Assembly: GCF_042854845.1 (NCBI RefSeq)
Contig: NZ_AP031498.1
Coordinates: 4,918,600 to 4,982,599 of the forward strand
DNA: 64,000 bases
Source: Maricurvus nonylphenolicus
GTDB taxonomy: Bacteria > Pseudomonadota > Gammaproteobacteria > Pseudomonadales > Cellvibrionaceae
Direction: 5' to 3'
This document shows positions 25,060-35,518 of this stretch, one piece after another. A program made the position numbers and the translations under genes. The notes under the pieces were generated by a model, which did not search any database, was not told the DNA's origin, and saw only the letters and a program-made list of their open reading frames with translations. The first letter of the stretch is position 1. Each line of letters begins with the position of its first letter.

Positions 25060-25593
25060 TTAATTATTAAAATTCATCTGTAAAAACAGCCTGATTTGAT
25101 GTTTCTCTGGGTGCTGATCTAACCACTGCTTAAAGTCATCCACCTTACTGAAATCAGATTCTCCTAATAGCTCCTGAAAACGCTCTTTCTGCGTATTTTC
25201 CTGCTTTTTCAGACGAATATTACGCTGCCAGGCATCGGTAAATATCTTGGGTAAGCGATCATGTAAATCCAGCTGCTTTAGGAGCTGCCATTCGCCTTTA
25301 TCCAGCCAGGCCTCGTCGCAGCCAGTACACATATCAATGCGGTTGGCAGTATCGACGCCCACCTGAAAACGGCTCATAAACCTGGAACACTTGGGACAGG
25401 TTTTAGCCTGCTCACTATCCTCGATAACAATATCTTCAAAAATATTATCAACAACCGGATTCTGATCCTGCCAATAGCGATAGTTCATCAGCGGCAGCAT
25501 TACGCCTTCACACTTATTACATCCCGCCCCCAATAAACCTGCTTCGAGCTCCTTTGGCTCCAGTCGATATCCCTTACACTGTGGACAATCCAT
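25060..25593 (-). CDS. double zinc-ribbon protein (zf-TFIIB-like CxxC pairs)
   Basis: CPQCKG...CNKCEG and CPKCSRF...CTGCDEAW, two Cys4 ribbons. Confidence 0.55.
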   Translation of the reverse strand: MDCPQCKGYRLEPKELEAGLLGAGCNKCEGVMLPLMNYRYWQDQNPVVDNIFEDIVIEDSEQAKTCPKCSRFMSRFQVGVDTANRIDMCTGCDEAWLDKGEWQLLKQLDLHDRLPKIFTDAWQRNIRLKKQENTQKERFQELLGESDFSKVDDFKQWLDQHPEKHQIRLFLQMNFNN

Positions 25594-25610: not shown

Positions 25611-28600
25611 TTAACTTGGTTTGGCGATAGAGGCTTCAAGTTCACGTAACTGATTAGATATATTTTTCATTTTATCGTGAGTCTTGAGATCAATTTCCAG
25701 CTTCTTATCCATACTACGCACCAGAGGGAAAATACTGTGCTCAATGGTTTCTGCCAGTACTGACAGCATTTTATCCATTCCCGGTACCGGCTGATTGACA
25801 ACCTTCACATCAGGCTTGGCAGACTCGACGGCGGAGATAAGCTTTTCTAACAGCTGCGGCAAAGCTTCTGCCTCAGACTCTGCTGGCTTCTCGTCATTCT
25901 CAGCTTGGAGCTTTTGAGTAGCAGCACTACCTAATACCTGAATACCATCAACCAAATCAGCCAATTGTGCGACCACTTTGCCACCGGTATCAGCATCATC
26001 ACCGCCCATGGCCTTGTTACGCATAAAATCCTTTTTAATTTGCTGCCAACGCTGTTCCTGCTCGGCATCCATATTGCCGCGTAATTCCGCCAGTTTTAAC
26101 AGGTTATCCTCGGCACCGGTGGTTAGCAGCTGGGCTTCACCCAAGTAGTGATCGGCAATCATCTGCATCAGCTCATCCTGATTCATAACCGCCGAGATTT
26201 TTTCCGTCATCTTGTTCATATTGCGGTAACTACCCTGCAATTTGAATGACGGCTCTGTACGGTATTTATCATCTTGCGCGGCAGAAGCGATATATTGCTG
26301 ATTAATTTTCAGTACAACATCGCGAATCACCATCATCTTTTTAAAAATTTCGGTAATTTCATTGATTTCAGCACCGCTGTACTGATGGGATAGATCAGTC
26401 GTGGCCACACTTGCACCACCCGCCATATCAATCAGCTTGTAAACATCTCCCATTTCACGCACCGCCAATGGGGCCAACACCTGATTAGACGTCAGCGCAT
26501 TTTCGATATAACTCAGGGCAAACTGTTCATCCATGCCACCCAAAATATCACCCAAGTTATAAATATCAGCCCGGTTGGCCAACATGTCAGGGATTTTGAA
26601 GGCTTCACCGGATTCGGTGTAGGGGTTACCCGCCATCACCACGCAGAACTTGCGACCACGCATATCATAGGTTTTGGTTTTCTCTTTCCAAACACCTTCA
26701 ATACGGCGGGTACCATCACAGAGTGAAATAAACTTCTGCAAGAACTCGGGATCGGTATGCTGGATATCATCCAGATACAGCATAACGTTATTACCCATCT
26801 CCAAAGCCAGATTGAGTTTTTCCAATTCCTGCCTGGCCGTAGCATTAGGCGCTTGCTGAGGATCAAGGGATACCACCTCATGACCCAATGAAGGACAGTT
26901 GATCTTCATAAAGATCAAGCCCAACCGGTTAGCCACATATTCCATCAAGGTGGTTTTACCGTAGCCAGGTGGCGAGATCATCATTAACAGGCCCATTAGG
27001 TCTGTTCGCTTGTTTTCACCTACCGTACCCATTTGCTTGGCGAGGTTGTCACCAATCAAAGGCAGGTAGGATTCGTTAATCAAACGGTTGCGGACAAATG
27101 AACTGAGCGGACGGGCTTTAAATTCATTTAGCCGCAAAGACTCTTTCTCTGAGGTAATGATATCCTGACGCACCTGCAGGTATTTGTGGTACGCGGGAAC
27201 AACCTCATAACGGTGATATTCCAGTCTCTGCAGGAATTCATCCAGCGCGAAATTCAGGGTGCGATCATTAATGGTTTCATGATCCCCCAACAACCCATCA
27301 ACACTCAGCTCCAGATCGACTTCGGTAAAACGCCGCTCCAGACGGGCATCGGCATTAATCAACGCCGTTGCCTCGGGAATATAACGACTAAGATGAGTCA
27401 GAGATTTTTCATCCACCAACGCCTGCAACCAGGCAGTCGTTAAATTCCAACGTTCAGCAGGCCAACCCAGCATTTTTTCCAGAGACATCAAGTAACGCCG
27501 CCAGGTTGAATCATCCACAGAACGCTTCAGCTCTTCTACCAGCTGAGTTGCATATTTACTGCCGATAAATTCGACACGCTCACGCCCTAATTCCGCCACC
27601 AGGTAATCTGCCGCCCGGCGAATATCCAATGGCTTAACAGGCAAGGGATGCAACTCAACAAAGTGCTGCATGGCCAAACGAATCTCCCCGGCCAGTAGCT
27701 CAACAGCATCATTGCTGGCAAAAAGGGATTGCATCTGTAATGCCGACTGCGCCCTTTCCGGCCAGGTTTCATAGGAAATCTTTGCTCGCTCGCCATTGTC
27801 ACTGGCAAGCTTGGCTGTAGCCTGTGCGATATTTTTAATATTGGCCCAATAAATCTGTGCCAGGCCACGACTTAGGGGATCGTATTGCAGCAAGTCTGCT
27901 CGATCAAAGGCCGGTACAAGTTCTCGCAACAACGCGACGGCATCAGCATCGTGGATACCCTTCTCATATCCTTCTTTATAACGTGGCGCCGCAAATTCTC
28001 GAACCAACTGATTGATACGTTTATCGTCACGCAGGGCGTCACGCAACATATCCATACTCAGCTCTTGGCGCTGATGTTGTGCGGCATCCAGAATGAGCGA
28101 TGCCAAATACTCTGATCGATAAACCTTCGGTGTTTCTGATTCGAGGGTGATATCCCAGTATTGCCTCAGCGCTAACAAATCCGGATGGGTAATAGGCTCA
28201 AAATAATTCGTACCGGTGAGGTGCACATTCAATGCACCGTCACGGGGAATAATGGTTAGATCCAATTCCTGAGTATTGACTGAGAATTTATGTCTTGGCC
28301 CCAACTTAATGATATTGCCTCCATCTTCATAGATGTCGGATTTATCCCGCAAACTACGCAAGGCTTGCTCTTTAATCGCTTTATAGCGGGATTCAATATC
28401 ATCAGCTTTGACGGCACTGTCGAGTTCGCGCAGCTGCTCGACCAGCTCGCGGATTTTCATTGCTAGAGCGTCGGAGGCGAAGTAAGTGTTAAGCTCATCA
28501 GCCTCGGTAAATTTCAACGAGCGCTTTTCAATACTCCCCAAAATTCGTCCCGCCGCATCCGCCACGTTCTGGGCTTTTCGCTGGCGTTCATCTAGCAGCT

Positions 28601-30920
28601 TTTGCTTGTGCGTTTCGAAGGACTCATAGACCTCTTCACGCTTATCCATAATATCGGCAAGGAACTGGTCGAAGTCACTAAACTGACTTTCCAGCTCTTC
28701 CAATTGAACTAACAGTCGGGATAGCTGCTCGTCACATCTCTCAGGGGTAGAAGACATCCCCAGCGCATTGGTAATACTCTGTGAGAAGAGTTTGAACTGG
28801 GCACCGAATTGCGCCACAGCTTCAGCAGAGCCCAGGTCTTTTTGTTTATGCTTGGCACCCGCCTTGCTCTGATTAAGTTGTGAGTAGACCAGTGAAATAG
28901 CATCAATAATACGTGTTCTTACGGTAGCATCCTGGACTTTTAGGGTCGCCATTAATTCCGATAGGATATCCAACCCAGAGGCAGTATCCTCGATTAATTC
29001 AATCAAAGGCTCCAAAACAGCTATGGTTTTGGCATCTTCTACCTGCTGATTAATGTCCTTAATTTTGACCTGATAGGGCTCTAACGCCTTCTCATCGGAG
29101 AGAAACGCTACTGTTTGCTCACTTAAGGTATCCTCCAAGCCTCGTAATTGCTGATCCATTTCATCAATCCGAGCTATATTGATATAACGATACTCTCGAA
29201 TCGTTACCAAGTGACCGCGTTGACGCCTTAACTTGCCCAAAGCATCAACAAACTCTTCTGTCGTATCCCAGCTGTCCGGACGAACAGACTGCACAAGATC
29301 AGTTTGTACCTGCTCAGCTTCCTGCATGGTTTTCGCAGATTGCTGACGAATACTCTCTACTTTTTCAAATTCATCAATAACCAGATCGGCAGTATTCGCG
29401 ACCTCCCTGATGATTTCCGGCAGGCCTTCAAGCTCTGGTGCTTCTGTACCCTTTTCTTCCAGCCAATAGTGATCGTCGAATAATTTCTTTGCAGATTTAA
29501 CCAACTCTTCATATAAACGTGACGAGACCGACTGATTATCGATCATTCGACAAACGCTGTAGAGATCCGAAACGCCGCGCACCAATTCGGCATTACCAAT
29601 ACGACCGAAGAAGGTCTGACTGGCTGGCTGCTGACTGGCATATTCAGCGGAGACGTAAGGCGTCTGCCATATCTGCATAGGATGAACCCGAGTAGGTTCT
29701 CCTTCCGCAGAGAAGATTACCAGCTGACCATTTTCGGCTAACGCATAGCCATGACCATAAATAGGGTTCTGCAGCTGTTTTTCAATCAGGTTATAGGCAA
29801 ACAGCCCAATGACACCCTGCTCTGGCTCGTAGAAAACATAGAGTACATCTTCACCATTAGGAGAGCGAATGGCACGCTTAAACTTTAAACCCTCGACCTC
29901 TTCATCAAATGATTTGAATTCTCCCGTCTGCAGGTAATAGCCGCCAGGGAAAATAATACCGTGGTCTTCGGGGAGCTGGACACAGGATTCACCAATCGCA
30001 TCGACACGTAATACGGACTCGGTGAGCTTATTGAAGATATAGTATCGCCACTCCTCTTCCCGATAAGGACGAACCTTTAGCAGAATCAAATCGCCAACAT
30101 CGGAGAATGCGATCTGGGCATCATCAAGAGACTGGGTTTTATCCTCGACAGACTCACTAAAGATACCCAAACCATCTTCGGTATTATTTTCAACTTTAAT
30201 GGTTAGATCGCCACCGATGGTATCGATAAAGACGGTATCAAGAATATTAATGTGGGGATGCCGACCATGGACACTGTCTTCACGGGTAACATCTGTCCAC
30301 TCGAAGTCATAGGCCGGCGGCAGCTGGATGTCCCGCTCACCACGGTTATCGATATAGTTAATCGTTTTACCGTCGGCAGAAATAGACCAGCGGAAGACTC
30401 TGATATCTTCCATGCGCTCACCGATTTGAAAGCCCGCCAATAGCTTGCCGTTTTTAACGGTTAACTCAATCAGCTTGGTGTGCTTGTAGTAACGGTACAG
30501 TTCTTCAAAGTCGTTAACAAAACTGGTTTGCGTGAGAAAACTCTCTGTTGGGCTAGCAGGCTGCATATCATAGCCGGACTCACCGGACTGCAGAGAAAAC
30601 AAGGCAAAGACGTCTTCAACCCTGGTTTCCTTTTTTAAGCCGATAAAGACGTTGTAGCCAAACAGCAAGTGATCACCCACTTGCACAATATCCCTGGCAA
30701 TACAGTTATTGTCTGTACGTACCCGAACACGACCAACAACATTCATATCGGAGCTGCCAAACTCCTCTAGCCTTGCGCTGTTTAGCTCAGCTGCTTTGCC
30801 GCTCAGTTGTCGCCCCTGCTCAATCAGGCGCTTGCGAATAATTTCGTAAGCACCACCTTCCGCAACAGCGTTATCAACAATGCTCTCATCAACAGGTTTG
30901 GCGTTTTCTTGCTGCACCAT
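25611..30920 (-). CDS. giant (1769 aa) cytoplasmic protein: N-terminal ~450-aa beta-rich domain, long helical/coiled-coil middle, C-proximal AAA_5 (MoxR/dynein/McrB-type) ATPase module
   Basis: Walker A ISPPGYGKTTL near residue 1230, Walker B VMLYLDDIQ, and sensor region GNPYTESGEAFKIPDMLANRADIYNL. No signal peptide or TM segment. Tightly linked (92 bp) downstream of the flotillin gene. Confidence 0.8.
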   Translation of the reverse strand: MVQQENAKPVDESIVDNAVAEGGAYEIIRKRLIEQGRQLSGKAAELNSARLEEFGSSDMNVVGRVRVRTDNNCIARDIVQVGDHLLFGYNVFIGLKKETRVEDVFALFSLQSGESGYDMQPASPTESFLTQTSFVNDFEELYRYYKHTKLIELTVKNGKLLAGFQIGERMEDIRVFRWSISADGKTINYIDNRGERDIQLPPAYDFEWTDVTREDSVHGRHPHINILDTVFIDTIGGDLTIKVENNTEDGLGIFSESVEDKTQSLDDAQIAFSDVGDLILLKVRPYREEEWRYYIFNKLTESVLRVDAIGESCVQLPEDHGIIFPGGYYLQTGEFKSFDEEVEGLKFKRAIRSPNGEDVLYVFYEPEQGVIGLFAYNLIEKQLQNPIYGHGYALAENGQLVIFSAEGEPTRVHPMQIWQTPYVSAEYASQQPASQTFFGRIGNAELVRGVSDLYSVCRMIDNQSVSSRLYEELVKSAKKLFDDHYWLEEKGTEAPELEGLPEIIREVANTADLVIDEFEKVESIRQQSAKTMQEAEQVQTDLVQSVRPDSWDTTEEFVDALGKLRRQRGHLVTIREYRYINIARIDEMDQQLRGLEDTLSEQTVAFLSDEKALEPYQVKIKDINQQVEDAKTIAVLEPLIELIEDTASGLDILSELMATLKVQDATVRTRIIDAISLVYSQLNQSKAGAKHKQKDLGSAEAVAQFGAQFKLFSQSITNALGMSSTPERCDEQLSRLLVQLEELESQFSDFDQFLADIMDKREEVYESFETHKQKLLDERQRKAQNVADAAGRILGSIEKRSLKFTEADELNTYFASDALAMKIRELVEQLRELDSAVKADDIESRYKAIKEQALRSLRDKSDIYEDGGNIIKLGPRHKFSVNTQELDLTIIPRDGALNVHLTGTNYFEPITHPDLLALRQYWDITLESETPKVYRSEYLASLILDAAQHQRQELSMDMLRDALRDDKRINQLVREFAAPRYKEGYEKGIHDADAVALLRELVPAFDRADLLQYDPLSRGLAQIYWANIKNIAQATAKLASDNGERAKISYETWPERAQSALQMQSLFASNDAVELLAGEIRLAMQHFVELHPLPVKPLDIRRAADYLVAELGRERVEFIGSKYATQLVEELKRSVDDSTWRRYLMSLEKMLGWPAERWNLTTAWLQALVDEKSLTHLSRYIPEATALINADARLERRFTEVDLELSVDGLLGDHETINDRTLNFALDEFLQRLEYHRYEVVPAYHKYLQVRQDIITSEKESLRLNEFKARPLSSFVRNRLINESYLPLIGDNLAKQMGTVGENKRTDLMGLLMMISPPGYGKTTLMEYVANRLGLIFMKINCPSLGHEVVSLDPQQAPNATARQELEKLNLALEMGNNVMLYLDDIQHTDPEFLQKFISLCDGTRRIEGVWKEKTKTYDMRGRKFCVVMAGNPYTESGEAFKIPDMLANRADIYNLGDILGGMDEQFALSYIENALTSNQVLAPLAVREMGDVYKLIDMAGGASVATTDLSHQYSGAEINEITEIFKKMMVIRDVVLKINQQYIASAAQDDKYRTEPSFKLQGSYRNMNKMTEKISAVMNQDELMQMIADHYLGEAQLLTTGAEDNLLKLAELRGNMDAEQEQRWQQIKKDFMRNKAMGGDDADTGGKVVAQLADLVDGIQVLGSAATQKLQAENDEKPAESEAEALPQLLEKLISAVESAKPDVKVVNQPVPGMDKMLSVLAETIEHSIFPLVRSMDKKLEIDLKTHDKMKNISNQLRELEASIAKPS

Positions 30921-31012: not shown

Positions 31013-32989
31013 CTAGTCTACTTCAGCAGTTTCTTCCTTCATGGAACTGAGGATTGAAGGGTCCAACAATGGCTTACCGTGTACAACGCGATCGATAAGG
31101 GTTTGAATGGTACCGCTCTTATCGGCCAGCCCATCTACGGCCTTACCAATAGACAGCGACTTGGCGAAATTATTAAAGAAGTGATCTTCGCCACCCACGA
31201 TATCGATCTTGGCTTTCTGCAGAGCAGTAGCCAGCACTTCAGCATTTTCTTTGGCGATATCCTTACCGGCGTCAATGGAGGCCAGCGCTTCTTTAAGCGC
31301 AGTCTCAAGGCCCATGCGGTATTCTTCGTGAGAGCGAGCTTGATCGCTCATGCTATTCATGGCATCAAACTTCTCAACCAAACCATCGGCTTCAGCTTTA
31401 AATTGCTCTCGAGTCACTTCGGCATTGGCCAAACCAAGCTCACGTTCAGCCTTCGCATCAGCATCACCTTGAGATTCAGTCACCTCCGCCTGTGCTTTAC
31501 CAACACCCAGTAATGCCTCAGCTTCTGCATTACCTTTAGCCTTAATGACATGGGCTTCTGCCACTCCTTCTTTTTCCAAGGCATCTGCTTTAGCTTCCTG
31601 TACTTTGGCATCCGCCAAACCAGGGGCAGCACGCTCAGCCTGAACACCTTCAGCCAATTTCTTCTTGGCATCGGCCTCTTTTGCCGCGGCCTCCAGTTCA
31701 GCCTGCGCCAGGGTAGTCACCTCAACAGCCTTATGCTTGGCGGATAGCTCTTCAGCTTCAGCCGCTTTCACCTGCTTAACCTTATCTTCTTCCGCAACCG
31801 CTTCAGCTGCCAATACCTGAGTTTGCTTGGCGCGATCAGCTTCAGAGACTTCACGCACCTCTTTGATACGCTCCTCTTCAATCGCAACCGTTTTATCAAC
31901 TGCTACACGCTCACGAATCACATTGGCAATTTCTTTCTTCTCAACCTCAACCGCCTTTTCTGCTTCAATCTTCTGCAGCTCAACCTCACGTTCACGGGAA
32001 ACAACTTCCAGATCGCGTGCGCGCGTTACTTTTTCTACCTCAATCACTACAGCACGCTGACGATTTTGCTCAGCAACCTCAATTTCGCGTTTCTGATTTT
32101 CAGTTTGAACAGCCAGATTCTGATCAGCCTCAATCGTAGCTGCCTCAGCCTTTTGACGCTCTTCTTCCTGAACCTTTTTGGTCTCAGCTTCTTCACGGGC
32201 TCGAATGGTAGCAACCTCACGCTCCTGCTTGGCCTCGGCGTCAGCCTGCTGACGCTCCAATTCCAACATAGCCTCAACGGTTTCTACATTTTTCTTCTTA
32301 ATTGCCAGCTCTTCGTCACGCTCCAAAATATTGGTACGAACATTTTGCTCTGCGGTCAGCTCAGTAATCTTTTTGATACCTTCGGCATCAAGAATATTAC
32401 TAGGATCCAGGGATGCTTTCGGCGTTTGCTCCAGATAATCAATGGCAACATCTTCCAACACATAACCATTTAAATCGTCGCCAATCACTTCTATGATCTT
32501 ATCACGAAATTGTTGACGATTTTCAAACAGCTGAACAAAGTCGATTTGCTTACCGACCGTTTTGAGTGCTTCAGAGAATTTAGCGTTGAACAACTCATTA
32601 ACTGCATCGCGATCAGAAGCGCGACTTGCACCGATGGACTTAGCCACTTTGAGAACATCCTCTGGAGTCTCATTAACACGCAAGTAAAATGCGACTGTAA
32701 TATCTGCACGCATATTATCAGCACAGATCAACCCATCTTTACCACGCCTATCAACTTCCATGGTAATCAAAGAGATACGCATCAATTCTTTCTTGTGAAT
32801 CACAGGTATGATCCAGGCCCCGGTAAAAAACACTTTAGGCCGACTACTTAGATCATTTTTGATTAAAGCTATACCCTGCTCCACCTTGACATAGAAGGAT
32901 TTAAAAAGAGCAGCCAATACCACCATAAACAAAAAGAAGCCACCAACAAATGTGACAACCCCACCCAATGTCGCTATTTCCTGAGACAT
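31013..32989 (-). CDS. flotillin-family SPFH/band-7 membrane protein (YqiK-like) with a long EA-rich coiled coil
   Basis: N-terminal TM helix, an SPFH domain, then about 300 aa of E/A/K/Q-rich heptad repeats. Confidence 0.8.
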   Translation of the reverse strand: MSQEIATLGGVVTFVGGFFLFMVVLAALFKSFYVKVEQGIALIKNDLSSRPKVFFTGAWIIPVIHKKELMRISLITMEVDRRGKDGLICADNMRADITVAFYLRVNETPEDVLKVAKSIGASRASDRDAVNELFNAKFSEALKTVGKQIDFVQLFENRQQFRDKIIEVIGDDLNGYVLEDVAIDYLEQTPKASLDPSNILDAEGIKKITELTAEQNVRTNILERDEELAIKKKNVETVEAMLELERQQADAEAKQEREVATIRAREEAETKKVQEEERQKAEAATIEADQNLAVQTENQKREIEVAEQNRQRAVVIEVEKVTRARDLEVVSREREVELQKIEAEKAVEVEKKEIANVIRERVAVDKTVAIEEERIKEVREVSEADRAKQTQVLAAEAVAEEDKVKQVKAAEAEELSAKHKAVEVTTLAQAELEAAAKEADAKKKLAEGVQAERAAPGLADAKVQEAKADALEKEGVAEAHVIKAKGNAEAEALLGVGKAQAEVTESQGDADAKAERELGLANAEVTREQFKAEADGLVEKFDAMNSMSDQARSHEEYRMGLETALKEALASIDAGKDIAKENAEVLATALQKAKIDIVGGEDHFFNNFAKSLSIGKAVDGLADKSGTIQTLIDRVVHGKPLLDPSILSSMKEETAEVD

Positions 32990-33106: not shown

Positions 33107-33784
33107 CTAAGCATTAAACTCCTGCTCCGAAATAACTCGATAAACATGCTCTGCTTCAACATACTCAAGCAGAACCACTCTATCACCACGTTTGAATTCT
33201 TCGTCATTGTACGAGCGCACCTTGACGATCAAGCCAGCACCACCGTCCTCAACACTCGCCTCACCAAATGTCTTGCTCACCGTTGTAGTTCTAACCACTC
33301 CAACACGACCAATTACTTTTTTTTCCACTTCCTGATCCATTGCTTGAAACACCGGCCGAAGTGGCTTAAGGATCAGACCAGTCAAAAAAGCCGACACAAA
33401 TAGAGAGATAAAAAAGATCGGAACACCAAACAAATATTTCGTGAACGCAACGGGATCATAGCCTATAAAAAAGTAAACACCGTAATAGCTGAGAAACCAT
33501 CCAAATAGTGATATCAAAACCACTATAATCGGCAAAGGTACGCCGTTTAACCCTAAACGCAATAACAACCCGCCCAACACACTGGCAGCCGATAACCCAT
33601 CAGCAGGGCTGTATTCAGCCTCCGGCACATCAATGTCAATCACACTGAGATCCAGCAAGCCTAATACAGCAAAGAGCCCATAAAAAACGCTCAACAACAA
33701 GAAAAAAGTAAAAAACACCGTAGGAAAGGAAGTGATATTTTGATAGAAAGGATCCATCTGATCACTCAACAAAATTGCAAACAT
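33107..33784 (-). CDS. NfeD-like membrane protein (YqiJ-like) with a C-terminal OB-fold
   Basis: Several TM helices followed by a C-terminal block GRVGVVRTTTVSKTFGEASVEDGGAGLIVKVRSYNDEEFKRGDRVVLLEYV consistent with the NfeD C-terminal OB domain (the 117-bp gap to the flotillin gene is read from coordinates). Confidence 0.6.
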   Translation of the reverse strand: MFAILLSDQMDPFYQNITSFPTVFFTFFLLLSVFYGLFAVLGLLDLSVIDIDVPEAEYSPADGLSAASVLGGLLLRLGLNGVPLPIIVVLISLFGWFLSYYGVYFFIGYDPVAFTKYLFGVPIFFISLFVSAFLTGLILKPLRPVFQAMDQEVEKKVIGRVGVVRTTTVSKTFGEASVEDGGAGLIVKVRSYNDEEFKRGDRVVLLEYVEAEHVYRVISEQEFNA

Positions 33785-33849: not shown

Positions 33850-34539
33850 CTAGCTTTTCTTACTTTTAATACGCTCTAAGATATCATCAGCGCTTTTTCC
33901 CGCCGGAGCTATACCAGCCTCCCGCAACTTAGCCTGCAGCGAAGAACCCGTAGTCTCCCCAGCTAATTCTTCAGCAGCTTTCATCTGCGCGGATTTCAGA
34001 GCCTGTTTCTCTTTAATTCGTTCAAGAGAATCCATTGCCGTGCGCATTTTTGACTGCGAACCACTGTGTCGCTCAGCAACAGCAGCCTGAGCACGCTGTA
34101 CATTCTCAGTAGCCTTCACCGTATCCACCTGCTGCTTTAAGCGTTTCAGGTTTTGCTCGGTTTGCTTGATAGCTGTTCGTAAATTACTCGCACTGGTAGC
34201 ATATCCCTGCTCAGCTTCCGACTCCTGTGTTAGCTGATTTTCCAAATCAGCAATCTTTTCAGCCACCTCGTGAGCCAGCGATTCATCACCTTTTTCCAGT
34301 GCTTTGAGCGCATAACCCTCATGCTCTTCAACTTGCTTGTGAATATCAGCACACTTCTTTTCTGCCAGTTTCTGTCTGGCCATAATATCAGCCAGACTGT
34401 CTTTCGAGTGCTTTAAATCTTCGGCTGCTTCGCGCACCTCCTGATCGAGAATACGCAACGCCTGAGTATCAACAATGGCTTCGCCAGCTTCATTAACACC
34501 ACCGCGCAAGGCCGTCATCATTTTGGACCAAATATTCAT
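33850..34539 (-). CDS. PspA/IM30-family protein (ESCRT-III-like; YjfJ-like paralog)
   Basis: The N-terminus MNIWSKMMTALRGGVNEAGEAIVDTQALRILDQEVREAAEDL aligns with E. coli PspA [40 protein letters not shown]. All-helical coiled coil, 229 aa. Confidence 0.8.
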   Translation of the reverse strand: MNIWSKMMTALRGGVNEAGEAIVDTQALRILDQEVREAAEDLKHSKDSLADIMARQKLAEKKCADIHKQVEEHEGYALKALEKGDESLAHEVAEKIADLENQLTQESEAEQGYATSASNLRTAIKQTEQNLKRLKQQVDTVKATENVQRAQAAVAERHSGSQSKMRTAMDSLERIKEKQALKSAQMKAAEELAGETTGSSLQAKLREAGIAPAGKSADDILERIKSKKS

Positions 34540-34551
34540 AACAATTTCCCT

Positions 34552-35181
34552 CTAGCTAGCCGCAACCTGGAATGTAAGAAAATCAGCATAGGCTTCCGTC
34601 GCCTGAATCACATTGCTGGCCAACACTTCGATTTCAAAAACCACATTCTCAAGAATGGAAGACGAACTCAACGCACCGAACATATGGTAGTAATCGGCAT
34701 CGGGGCCCACGTGATCCAAACTAATGGTGGAGAGCGGGAAGTATTTATGAGTACGCAATACCGCATCGTTAAAGGCCGCCACATCACTCACTTCATTAAC
34801 GGACCACAAAACCGCCTCAACAATAATTTGCTCACCGGACACAGTCAGAAACACCGGCAAATCGCCGTACTCATTCATTACCAGGTGTAACGCGGGCTCA
34901 ACCCCGTCAATTAATTCAACACTCGCCTTACCAGAACTAAATAACTCAACATCCTTGAGCGCCTCATACAAACCCGTGGTTGTCCACGCTTGATTACCTA
35001 CTGTCATAGCACTTACTCCTTTTAACCAATCTTCATCCACCTCCTGCCGCAACTGCTTTTCCATCACGGACAGCTGCTTGGCATTCTCTGGGCGGATCCA
35101 TACCTCTTTTTTCACCAGCCCCTGCTCACGCAGGCGCTTGCGGTATTCACGTTGATAATGTGCAGATGATTTTGCTTTCAT
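34552..35181 (-). CDS. YjfI-like (DUF2170?) protein, first gene of the cluster. It has a basic N-terminal extension and is translationally coupled to the PspA-like gene
   Basis: 12-bp gap to the pspA-like gene. The conserved yjfI-yjfJ pairing in enterobacteria suggests a DUF2170 assignment, which is not verified here. Confidence 0.4.
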   Translation of the reverse strand: MKAKSSAHYQREYRKRLREQGLVKKEVWIRPENAKQLSVMEKQLRQEVDEDWLKGVSAMTVGNQAWTTTGLYEALKDVELFSSGKASVELIDGVEPALHLVMNEYGDLPVFLTVSGEQIIVEAVLWSVNEVSDVAAFNDAVLRTHKYFPLSTISLDHVGPDADYYHMFGALSSSSILENVVFEIEVLASNVIQATEAYADFLTFQVAAS

Positions 35182-35197
35182 GAATTTAGACTAAACC

Positions 35198-35233
35198 ATT
35201 ACATGTAATACGGTCAAGAAATATTACATGTAA
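35198..35233. promoter_or_regulatory. two copies of the palindrome (A)TTACATGTAA(T), centres about 25 bp apart, immediately upstream of the cluster's first gene
   Basis: ATTACATGTAAT at 35198-35209 is a perfect 12-mer. TTACATGTAA sits at 35224-35233. Both lie in a 337-bp AT-rich intergenic region. Confidence 0.35.
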
Positions 35234-35518
35234 CAATTATTTATGCGTAACATATTGATAAATAAGGATTTTTTGGAAAACAAACACACACAAAAAGCTA
35301 TAAGCGCATCATTTTCCGAAGAAAAGAAGGTCTAGCGAGAGAAATACGAGTAAGCCGTCAGCCTCCGTAAGGCGACAGAACAAAGCAGAAGGGTAGAGTA
35401 GAAATATGACATATCATCCATGACCAAGAGAGGTAAAGTTCCAGTAGCGCTAGTTGAACATACAGGGCGCCCCACAAGCAAGCCACCCCCAACAAAAAAC
35501 AATAGTGCTGCTGATTGA

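Follow-up and report, generated by a model that had tools for sequence, protein, structure and literature searches.

What is a soluble protein of 1769 amino acids with one ATPase module doing in an operon that also encodes a flotillin and a PspA homologue? Bacterial flotillins and PspA/Vipp1 (ESCRT-III) proteins form large membrane-bound cages and polymers. A Vps4-like ATPase appears, according to a recent review, to be absent from bacteria (PMC7619361). We address the question for an operon of Maricurvus nonylphenolicus contained in a 64-kb stretch of DNA, referred to here as the window, for which an original prediction had proposed that the ATPase plays a mechanical or scaffold role beside flotillin/PspA assemblies.

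The ATPase gene and its family

The genes of the operon all lie on the minus strand, and are listed here in order of coordinate together with the candidate operator.

25060–25593, minus strand: Zn-ribbon protein, TFIIB-type (Pfam Zn_ribbon_TFIIB), 177 aa, 17 nt downstream of the ATPase gene
25611–30920, minus strand: ATPase, BacE-type, 1769 aa, 200.7 kDa, pI 4.9, soluble; ORF with ATG start
31013–32989, minus strand: flotillin/SPFH protein, 658 aa, with N-terminal transmembrane segment, Band_7 domain and long E/A-rich coiled coil (NCBI 'flotillin family protein')
33107–33784, minus strand: YqiJ/short-NfeD-like membrane protein, 225 aa (UniRef 'DUF1449')
33850–34539, minus strand: PspA/IM30 (bacterial ESCRT-III) homologue, BacB-like (Pfam PspA_IM30, E 1.6e-49)
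34552–35181, minus strand: BacA/YjfI (DUF2170, CesT/Tir-like) with N-terminal extension of about 60 aa (Pfam DUF2170; NCBIfam BacA equivalog)
35199–35233: candidate operon operator, a pair of perfect TTACATGTAA palindromes (−27 and −52 relative to the bacA ATG)

The ATG of the ATPase gene is preceded by the Shine-Dalgarno-like AAGGGAAG, and the product matches an NCBI entry for M. nonylphenolicus exactly (BFM18100.1 / WP_390616099.1), the name given by both NCBI and UniRef being 'DNA repair ATPase'. More than 6000 clusters of homologues, with lengths of about 1750–1900 aa, carry the same set of Pfam domains, indicating that the predicted ORF is a real gene. Family representatives at 50% clustering are mostly 1550–2036 aa in length and have the AAA module at approximately residues 1100–1650.

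Pfam DUF3686 matches residues 39–485 of the ATPase (E 1.7e-209, 696.3 bits against a cutoff of 25, profile positions 2–448 of 448) and DUF7902 matches residues 611–694 (E 2.6e-26, 92.1 bits against a cutoff of 26), while AAA, AAA_22 and AAA_5 each score above their own cutoffs. A search of NCBIfam returned no model for the ATPase, and the PDB, searched by sequence and by profile, gave P-loop-level matches only (RuvB, p97, Rix7), with no solved relative. The Pfam matches show that the protein is a member of the DUF3686/DUF7902/AAA+ family labelled 'DNA repair ATPase' by the databases. The layout had originally been taken to correspond to no described family, a view that does not stand: the two DUF profiles cover the protein, such an ATPase in such an operon type has been described computationally by Ravi et al. 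2024 (PMC11237479), and the gene at this position in Pseudomonas aeruginosa has been named bacE by Wallart et al. 2024 (PMC10948618). The family is widespread, already catalogued and already discussed in print, and the Maricurvus gene is an orthologue within it. Literature searches ('DUF3686'; 'DNA repair ATPase' with flotillin; newer BacE work) yielded nothing past PMC10948618, and no experiment on the biochemistry of any DUF3686/DUF7902 ATPase was found.

Domain organization of the ATPase

Profile matches, AlphaFold2 (AF2) models (pLDDT 81–84) and Foldseek comparisons show that the ATPase has four parts, namely a beta-propeller, an elongated helical arm, a compact all-alpha domain and one C-terminal AAA+ module of the MoxR/dynein type. 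The regions, all on the minus strand, are as follows.

aa 39–485 (29466–30806): DUF3686 beta-propeller of about seven blades, with a helix (aa 24–54) ahead of it (Pfam, AF2, Foldseek)
aa 437–860 (28341–29612): elongated helical region, longest helix 58 residues (DSSP, AF2 model)
aa 611–694 (28839–29090): DUF7902, within the helical region (Pfam)
aa ~870–910 (28191–28313): small beta subdomain with conserved GxHRFxVN...HLTGT (AF2 strands, residues 30–69 of the model of aa 841–1769)
aa ~935–1270 (27111–28118): compact all-alpha domain with invariant G988-x-H990-D991-x-D993 (pLDDT >90)
aa 1310–1460 (26541–26993): AAA+ alpha/beta core
aa 1461–1640 (26001–26540): enlarged helical lid/C-domain (helices in the AF2 model; Q1562-G-S-Y-R1566 invariant)
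aa 1641–1769 (25614–26000): acidic, poorly conserved, low-confidence helical tail (pI 4.7, pLDDT ~38–67)

The beta-rich N-terminus that had been predicted is borne out by the DUF3686 match and by the AF2 model, in which strands between residues 60 and 419 form about seven four-stranded blades with pLDDT mostly 82–93. Foldseek matched this domain to WD40, prolyl-oligopeptidase, tricorn and PON1 propellers (E 1e-6 to 1e-4). The helical middle of the protein, some 800 aa in all, predominantly helical and originally treated as one region, resolves into the long helices, which gave weak profile matches only, to syntaxin and other coiled coils, the small beta subdomain, in which G874 is invariant among 72 homologues, and the all-alpha domain, for which no fold relative was recognized. 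Altogether about 1300 aa, the long helices included, are non-ATPase sequence. No transmembrane segment was found by hydropathy (top 19-residue Kyte-Doolittle mean 1.28), in agreement with the proposed lack of a membrane anchor. The acidic tail is likewise present as predicted; its majority-residue frequency in the homologue alignment is 0.18 with 42% gaps, and family members that have no tail include those of Limnobaculum (L009) and Nocardiopsis (L079).

The AAA+ module

The ATPase contains one genuine P-loop, and the AAA_5 profile match and the best fold matches place the module in the MoxR/AAA_5 clade with dynein and midasin, so that the prediction of a single AAA module of this type holds, as does the predicted domain order. 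All of the motifs quoted with the prediction are present (IFPGGYYLQTGEF at 323–335, GLFAYNLIEKQ at 372–382, ISPPGYGKTT at 1315–1324, VMLYLDDIQHTD at 1379–1390 and GNPYTES...IYNL at 1431–1456), although the core, which had been placed at residues 1220–1400, actually occupies residues 1310–1460, the earlier figure being about 90 residues too early.

Walker A corresponds to S1316–T1323 (SPPGYGKT), with K1322, and Walker B to D1384-D1385 followed by Q1387-H1388 (DDxQH), an Asp-Asp rather than an Asp-Glu pair. Sensor 1 is N1432 (GNP), and the arginines are R1405 and R1450, with an NRAD motif in the invariant set of the family. Conservation was assessed in 72 diverse homologues at 30–77% identity. 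SPPGYGKT, D1384-D1385, Q1387-H1388, G-N1432-P, R1405, R1450 and QGSYR (1562–1566) were invariant among them, so that loss of the Walker residues from orthologues, originally named as a ground for refuting the prediction, was not observed; the AAA core was the best-conserved region of the protein (majority-residue frequency 0.78). Every predicted catalytic residue of the module is therefore conserved. The Asp-Asp form of Walker B suggests that hydrolysis is slow or regulated. Q1562-G-S-Y-R1566 resembles the GxSxR motif of MoxR proteins, and we take it to be a candidate sensor 2.

In the AF2 model a pre-sensor-1 beta-hairpin (aa 1406–1419; strands 1406–1411 and 1414–1419), a feature of the MoxR/AAA_5 clade, lies between alpha-3 and beta-4. 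A possible helix-2 insert is a conserved 18-residue loop (aa 1342–1359) between beta-2 and alpha-2, although it is not modelled as a hairpin. This loop occupies the pore-loop-1 position and reads SLGHxVxSLDP; no canonical aromatic pore loop was found in the ATPase, which counts against assuming that it threads substrates.

Conservation of the operon

We compared the gene neighborhood of the ATPase in 80 loci. In all 76 complete loci, the other four being truncated, the gene immediately upstream of the ATPase gene encodes a flotillin and has the same orientation. The 76 loci come from Gamma-, Beta- and Zetaproteobacteria, Myxococcota, Actinomycetota, Clostridia and Acidobacteriota. The same arrangement is found on plasmid pQBR103, and flotillin adjoins the ATPase in four of five distant lineages (ATPase identity 29–33%), the neighbor being absent at one distant member (P0263; loci L083, in GCA_031454105.1, and L084). 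This synteny favors the proposal that the ATPase works with the neighboring flotillin/PspA assemblies. YqiJ is present in 72, BacA in 40 and PspA in 38 of the 80 loci; the Zn-ribbon gene recurs but is optional (10/80), and in four of the ten it lies between flotillin and ATPase. These data show a conserved three-gene core consisting of the YqiJ/short-NfeD membrane protein, flotillin and the ATPase, which in Maricurvus sits in a bacABCDEF-like envelope-stress operon encoding BacA/DUF2170, PspA, YqiJ, flotillin, ATPase and Zn-ribbon proteins.

The assignment of BacA is based on the NCBIfam equivalog (320.9 bits against a cutoff of 300), residues 3–50 also giving a weak match to UrfF, and that of flotillin on a Band_7 match obtained when the N-terminal 260 aa were scanned alone (E 6.4e-8). 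No conserved C-terminal peptide that could serve as a docking motif was found on flotillin, the last ~30 residues being its sole variable part. The C-terminal tail motif of the ATPase is commoner in PspA-linked loci (26/38 compared with 8/32; Fisher p = 3.5e-4, phylogeny uncorrected), an association with many exceptions and confounded by phylogeny that can be regarded as a lead only. Just downstream in the window is a low-GC block of non-conserved genes.

In support of the candidate operator upstream of bacA, TTACATGTAA has exactly two matches in the 64 kb compared with 0.04 expected. In many loci a TYACATGTRA pair is conserved in matching positions, but only where BacA carries the N-terminal extension. 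No sigma-54 promoter (TGGCAC-N5-TTGC, at most two mismatches) was found on the minus strand upstream of bacA (35182–35518), and the count of this pattern across the window is at chance level. A consensus scan for promoters and terminators between 22 and 36.5 kb performed no better than on shuffled sequence, and neither the Rfam nor the tRNA scan of the window gave a match.

Comparison with characterized systems

The closest named counterpart is the 'biofilm-associated cluster' bacABCDEF of P. aeruginosa, in which the order BacA/DUF2170, PspA, short NfeD/YqiJ, SPFH/flotillin and large ATPase is that found here, and in which the published description of the ATPase carries the DUF3686 label as does the Maricurvus protein. 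In seven other species of the Pseudomonas group these five genes recur in identical order, the ATPase identity being 58–59%. By position and published description, the Maricurvus ATPase appears to correspond to bacE (PA14_16190, apparently PA3728), this apparent orthology being drawn from gene order in other Pseudomonas species and from the published descriptions rather than from direct alignment. Two differences are evident: the sigma-54 promoter proposed for bacA of P. aeruginosa has no counterpart in Maricurvus, and the sixth gene encodes a Zn-ribbon protein in Maricurvus whereas in Pseudomonas loci a rhomboid-like and then a phospholipase-D-like gene follow. In P. aeruginosa, bacA-F are co-transcribed and BacB-F are elevated 6–13 fold in a bacA mutant (PMC10948618); the operon influences biofilm and virulence, and PA3728 is mutated recurrently in cystic-fibrosis isolates. 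PA14_16160 has been called 'short NfeD', and deletion of the P. aeruginosa flotillin PaFlo3 (BacD) decreased biofilm by only ~20% (PMC13086221), so any phenotype of the ATPase may be subtle.

The operon described by Ravi et al. agrees point by point with that of Maricurvus in domain content and operon partners (PMC11237479). The same study reported shortened operons, flotillin-YqiJ(-ATPase), that lack PspA, a finding confirmed by our 80 loci, and flotillin-YqiJ pairs without the ATPase, for example in Escherichia coli, indicating that flotillin does not need the ATPase (PMC11237479).

Three types of AAA+ protein invite mechanistic comparison, and the Maricurvus ATPase differs from each. The Vps4/CdvC proteins that act with ESCRT-III are, like the Maricurvus ATPase, AAA+ proteins encoded beside a member of the ESCRT-III superfamily, here PspA, but the Maricurvus protein has neither an MIT domain at its N-terminus nor an AAA domain of the classical type, the two Vps4 hallmarks. 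MoxR ATPases such as CbbQ, NorQ and RavA are stand-alone hexameric proteins of ~250–500 aa that work with a separate VWA-domain adaptor protein, whereas the Maricurvus ATPase has 1300 extra N-terminal residues and an enlarged lid, and its sequence similarity to them is marginal. Pfam gave no VWA match in ten operon and flanking proteins, and the gene families that recur downstream resemble, as judged by eye, phospholipase D, rhomboid, TelA and Zn-ribbon proteins rather than VWA proteins; with no VWA partner detected nearby, we rejected a canonical MoxR system. FtsH within the HflK/C SPFH cage is an AAA+ machine tied functionally and genomically to an SPFH assembly of the bacterial inner membrane. 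It is, however, membrane-anchored, of the classical AAA clade and equipped with a protease domain, whereas the Maricurvus ATPase is a soluble, MoxR-like protein that lacks a protease domain.

Discussion

Because a flotillin gene nearly always lies beside the ATPase gene, ATP-driven remodelling of flotillin/PspA membrane-protection assemblies is its most likely function. We propose that this is a MoxR-like ATPase whose adaptor domains are integral and which acts to remodel flotillin assemblies and, secondarily, those of PspA, and give this proposal about an even chance of being correct. By analogy with CbbQ, NorQ and RavA, its AAA+ domains would probably associate to give a ring, assumed to be hexameric like those of these relatives; the candidate arginine finger R1450, being invariant, implies catalysis between subunits. 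The propeller and helical arms would be its own adaptor domains, replacing the separate VWA adaptor, and would attach it to the cytoplasmic flotillin cage at the inner membrane. Remodelling driven by ATP binding and hydrolysis would open, disassemble or recycle this cage, and could also release clients or aid the loading of PspA polymer at damaged membrane. We infer the physical contact between ATPase and flotillin solely from synteny.

Two alternatives keep the protein at the membrane assemblies. The ATPase could be a nucleotide-gated scaffold or tether, in which a large arm, switched in conformation by ATP binding, uses the propeller to bring clients to the flotillin microdomain or connects flotillin domains with other structures, with little mechanical work done. 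The invariant Asp-Asp Walker B, the ~1300 aa of non-ATPase sequence with its long helices and the lack of a canonical pore loop are in keeping with such a role, and DnaA, with the same DDxQ-type motif, is a slow ATP switch. Yet the invariant sensor 1 and both arginines within the best-conserved part of the protein point to real, oligomer-dependent hydrolysis, and the proteins nearest to it in structure are active remodellers and motors; on balance we consider a scaffold unlikely. A Vps4-like role, which we judge rather improbable, would make PspA the true substrate, its polymers being disassembled or recycled, with flotillin merely a membrane platform. PspA shares the operon here and in 38 of the 80 loci, one distant lineage has it convergent and right after the ATPase, and loci with PspA more often have the tail motif than those without it (26/38 compared with 8/32), a comparison uncorrected for phylogeny. 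AAA+ partners of PspA have been suggested to act like Vps4 (Ravi et al., PMC11237479), and a review of the field notes that bacterial PspA has no known regulator of the Vps4 type (PMC7619361).

Two further alternatives give the ATPase a different function. An anti-phage or abortive-infection system triggered by infection might be considered on account of the induction of PA3728–PA3732 in phage-infected P. aeruginosa (PMC12041424), the occurrence of the family on megaplasmids, a patchy distribution that hints at horizontal transfer, and the low-GC gene block downstream; phage induction is, however, the defining behavior of PspA envelope-stress systems generally. PADLOC, applied to ten operon and flanking proteins, found no known defence ATPase beyond a match to IetA at the P-loop (E 2.3e-4 over 34 residues), its matches of PspA to JetC and LmuB being coiled-coil noise, and nuclease, toxin and sensor domains were looked for and not found. 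With nothing meaningful from PADLOC we rejected this reading, which is very improbable. Least credible of all, and close to negligible, is the database name taken literally, namely an SMC/Rad50/SbcC-type ATPase for DNA repair. Its sole support is the labels of NCBI and of Pfam DUF3686 ('ATPase involved in DNA repair'), apart from a helical region that is superficially SMC-like. The protein has a single contiguous AAA+ domain in its C-terminal third, with Walker A and B 60 residues apart, rather than the split ABC-type head, and the PDB profile search returned no SMC or Rad50 relative, on which grounds this reading too was rejected. The RuvB matches from the profile search are confined to the P-loop segment, and those from Foldseek can be put down to the AAA+ fold common to both proteins. 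Neither a DNA-binding domain nor a partner nuclease was detected, all conserved neighbors are membrane or PspA proteins, and our literature search found no paper tying the family to DNA repair. The name 'DNA repair ATPase' is thus probably misleading, being without support in sequence, fold or gene context.

Since the Maricurvus gene is an orthologue in a catalogued family, it is useful as a pointer and does not amount to a discovery. Located beside flotillin in hundreds of species and co-regulated with PspA in P. aeruginosa, the ATPase is an obvious and tractable candidate for the missing regulator of flotillin and PspA assembly and disassembly. The near-obligate adjacency to flotillin, in at least seven phyla or classes, and the full conservation of the catalytic residues are compatible with a more specific form of the remodelling proposal, which we regard as less likely than not: that the family is a dedicated ATP-driven remodeller of bacterial flotillin cages and, in operons with PspA, couples microdomains to ESCRT-III-type repair. 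If so, it would be the first known energy-consuming regulator of an SPFH assembly other than HflK/C, and in PspA-containing operons would fill the role that Vps4 has in archaea and eukaryotes.

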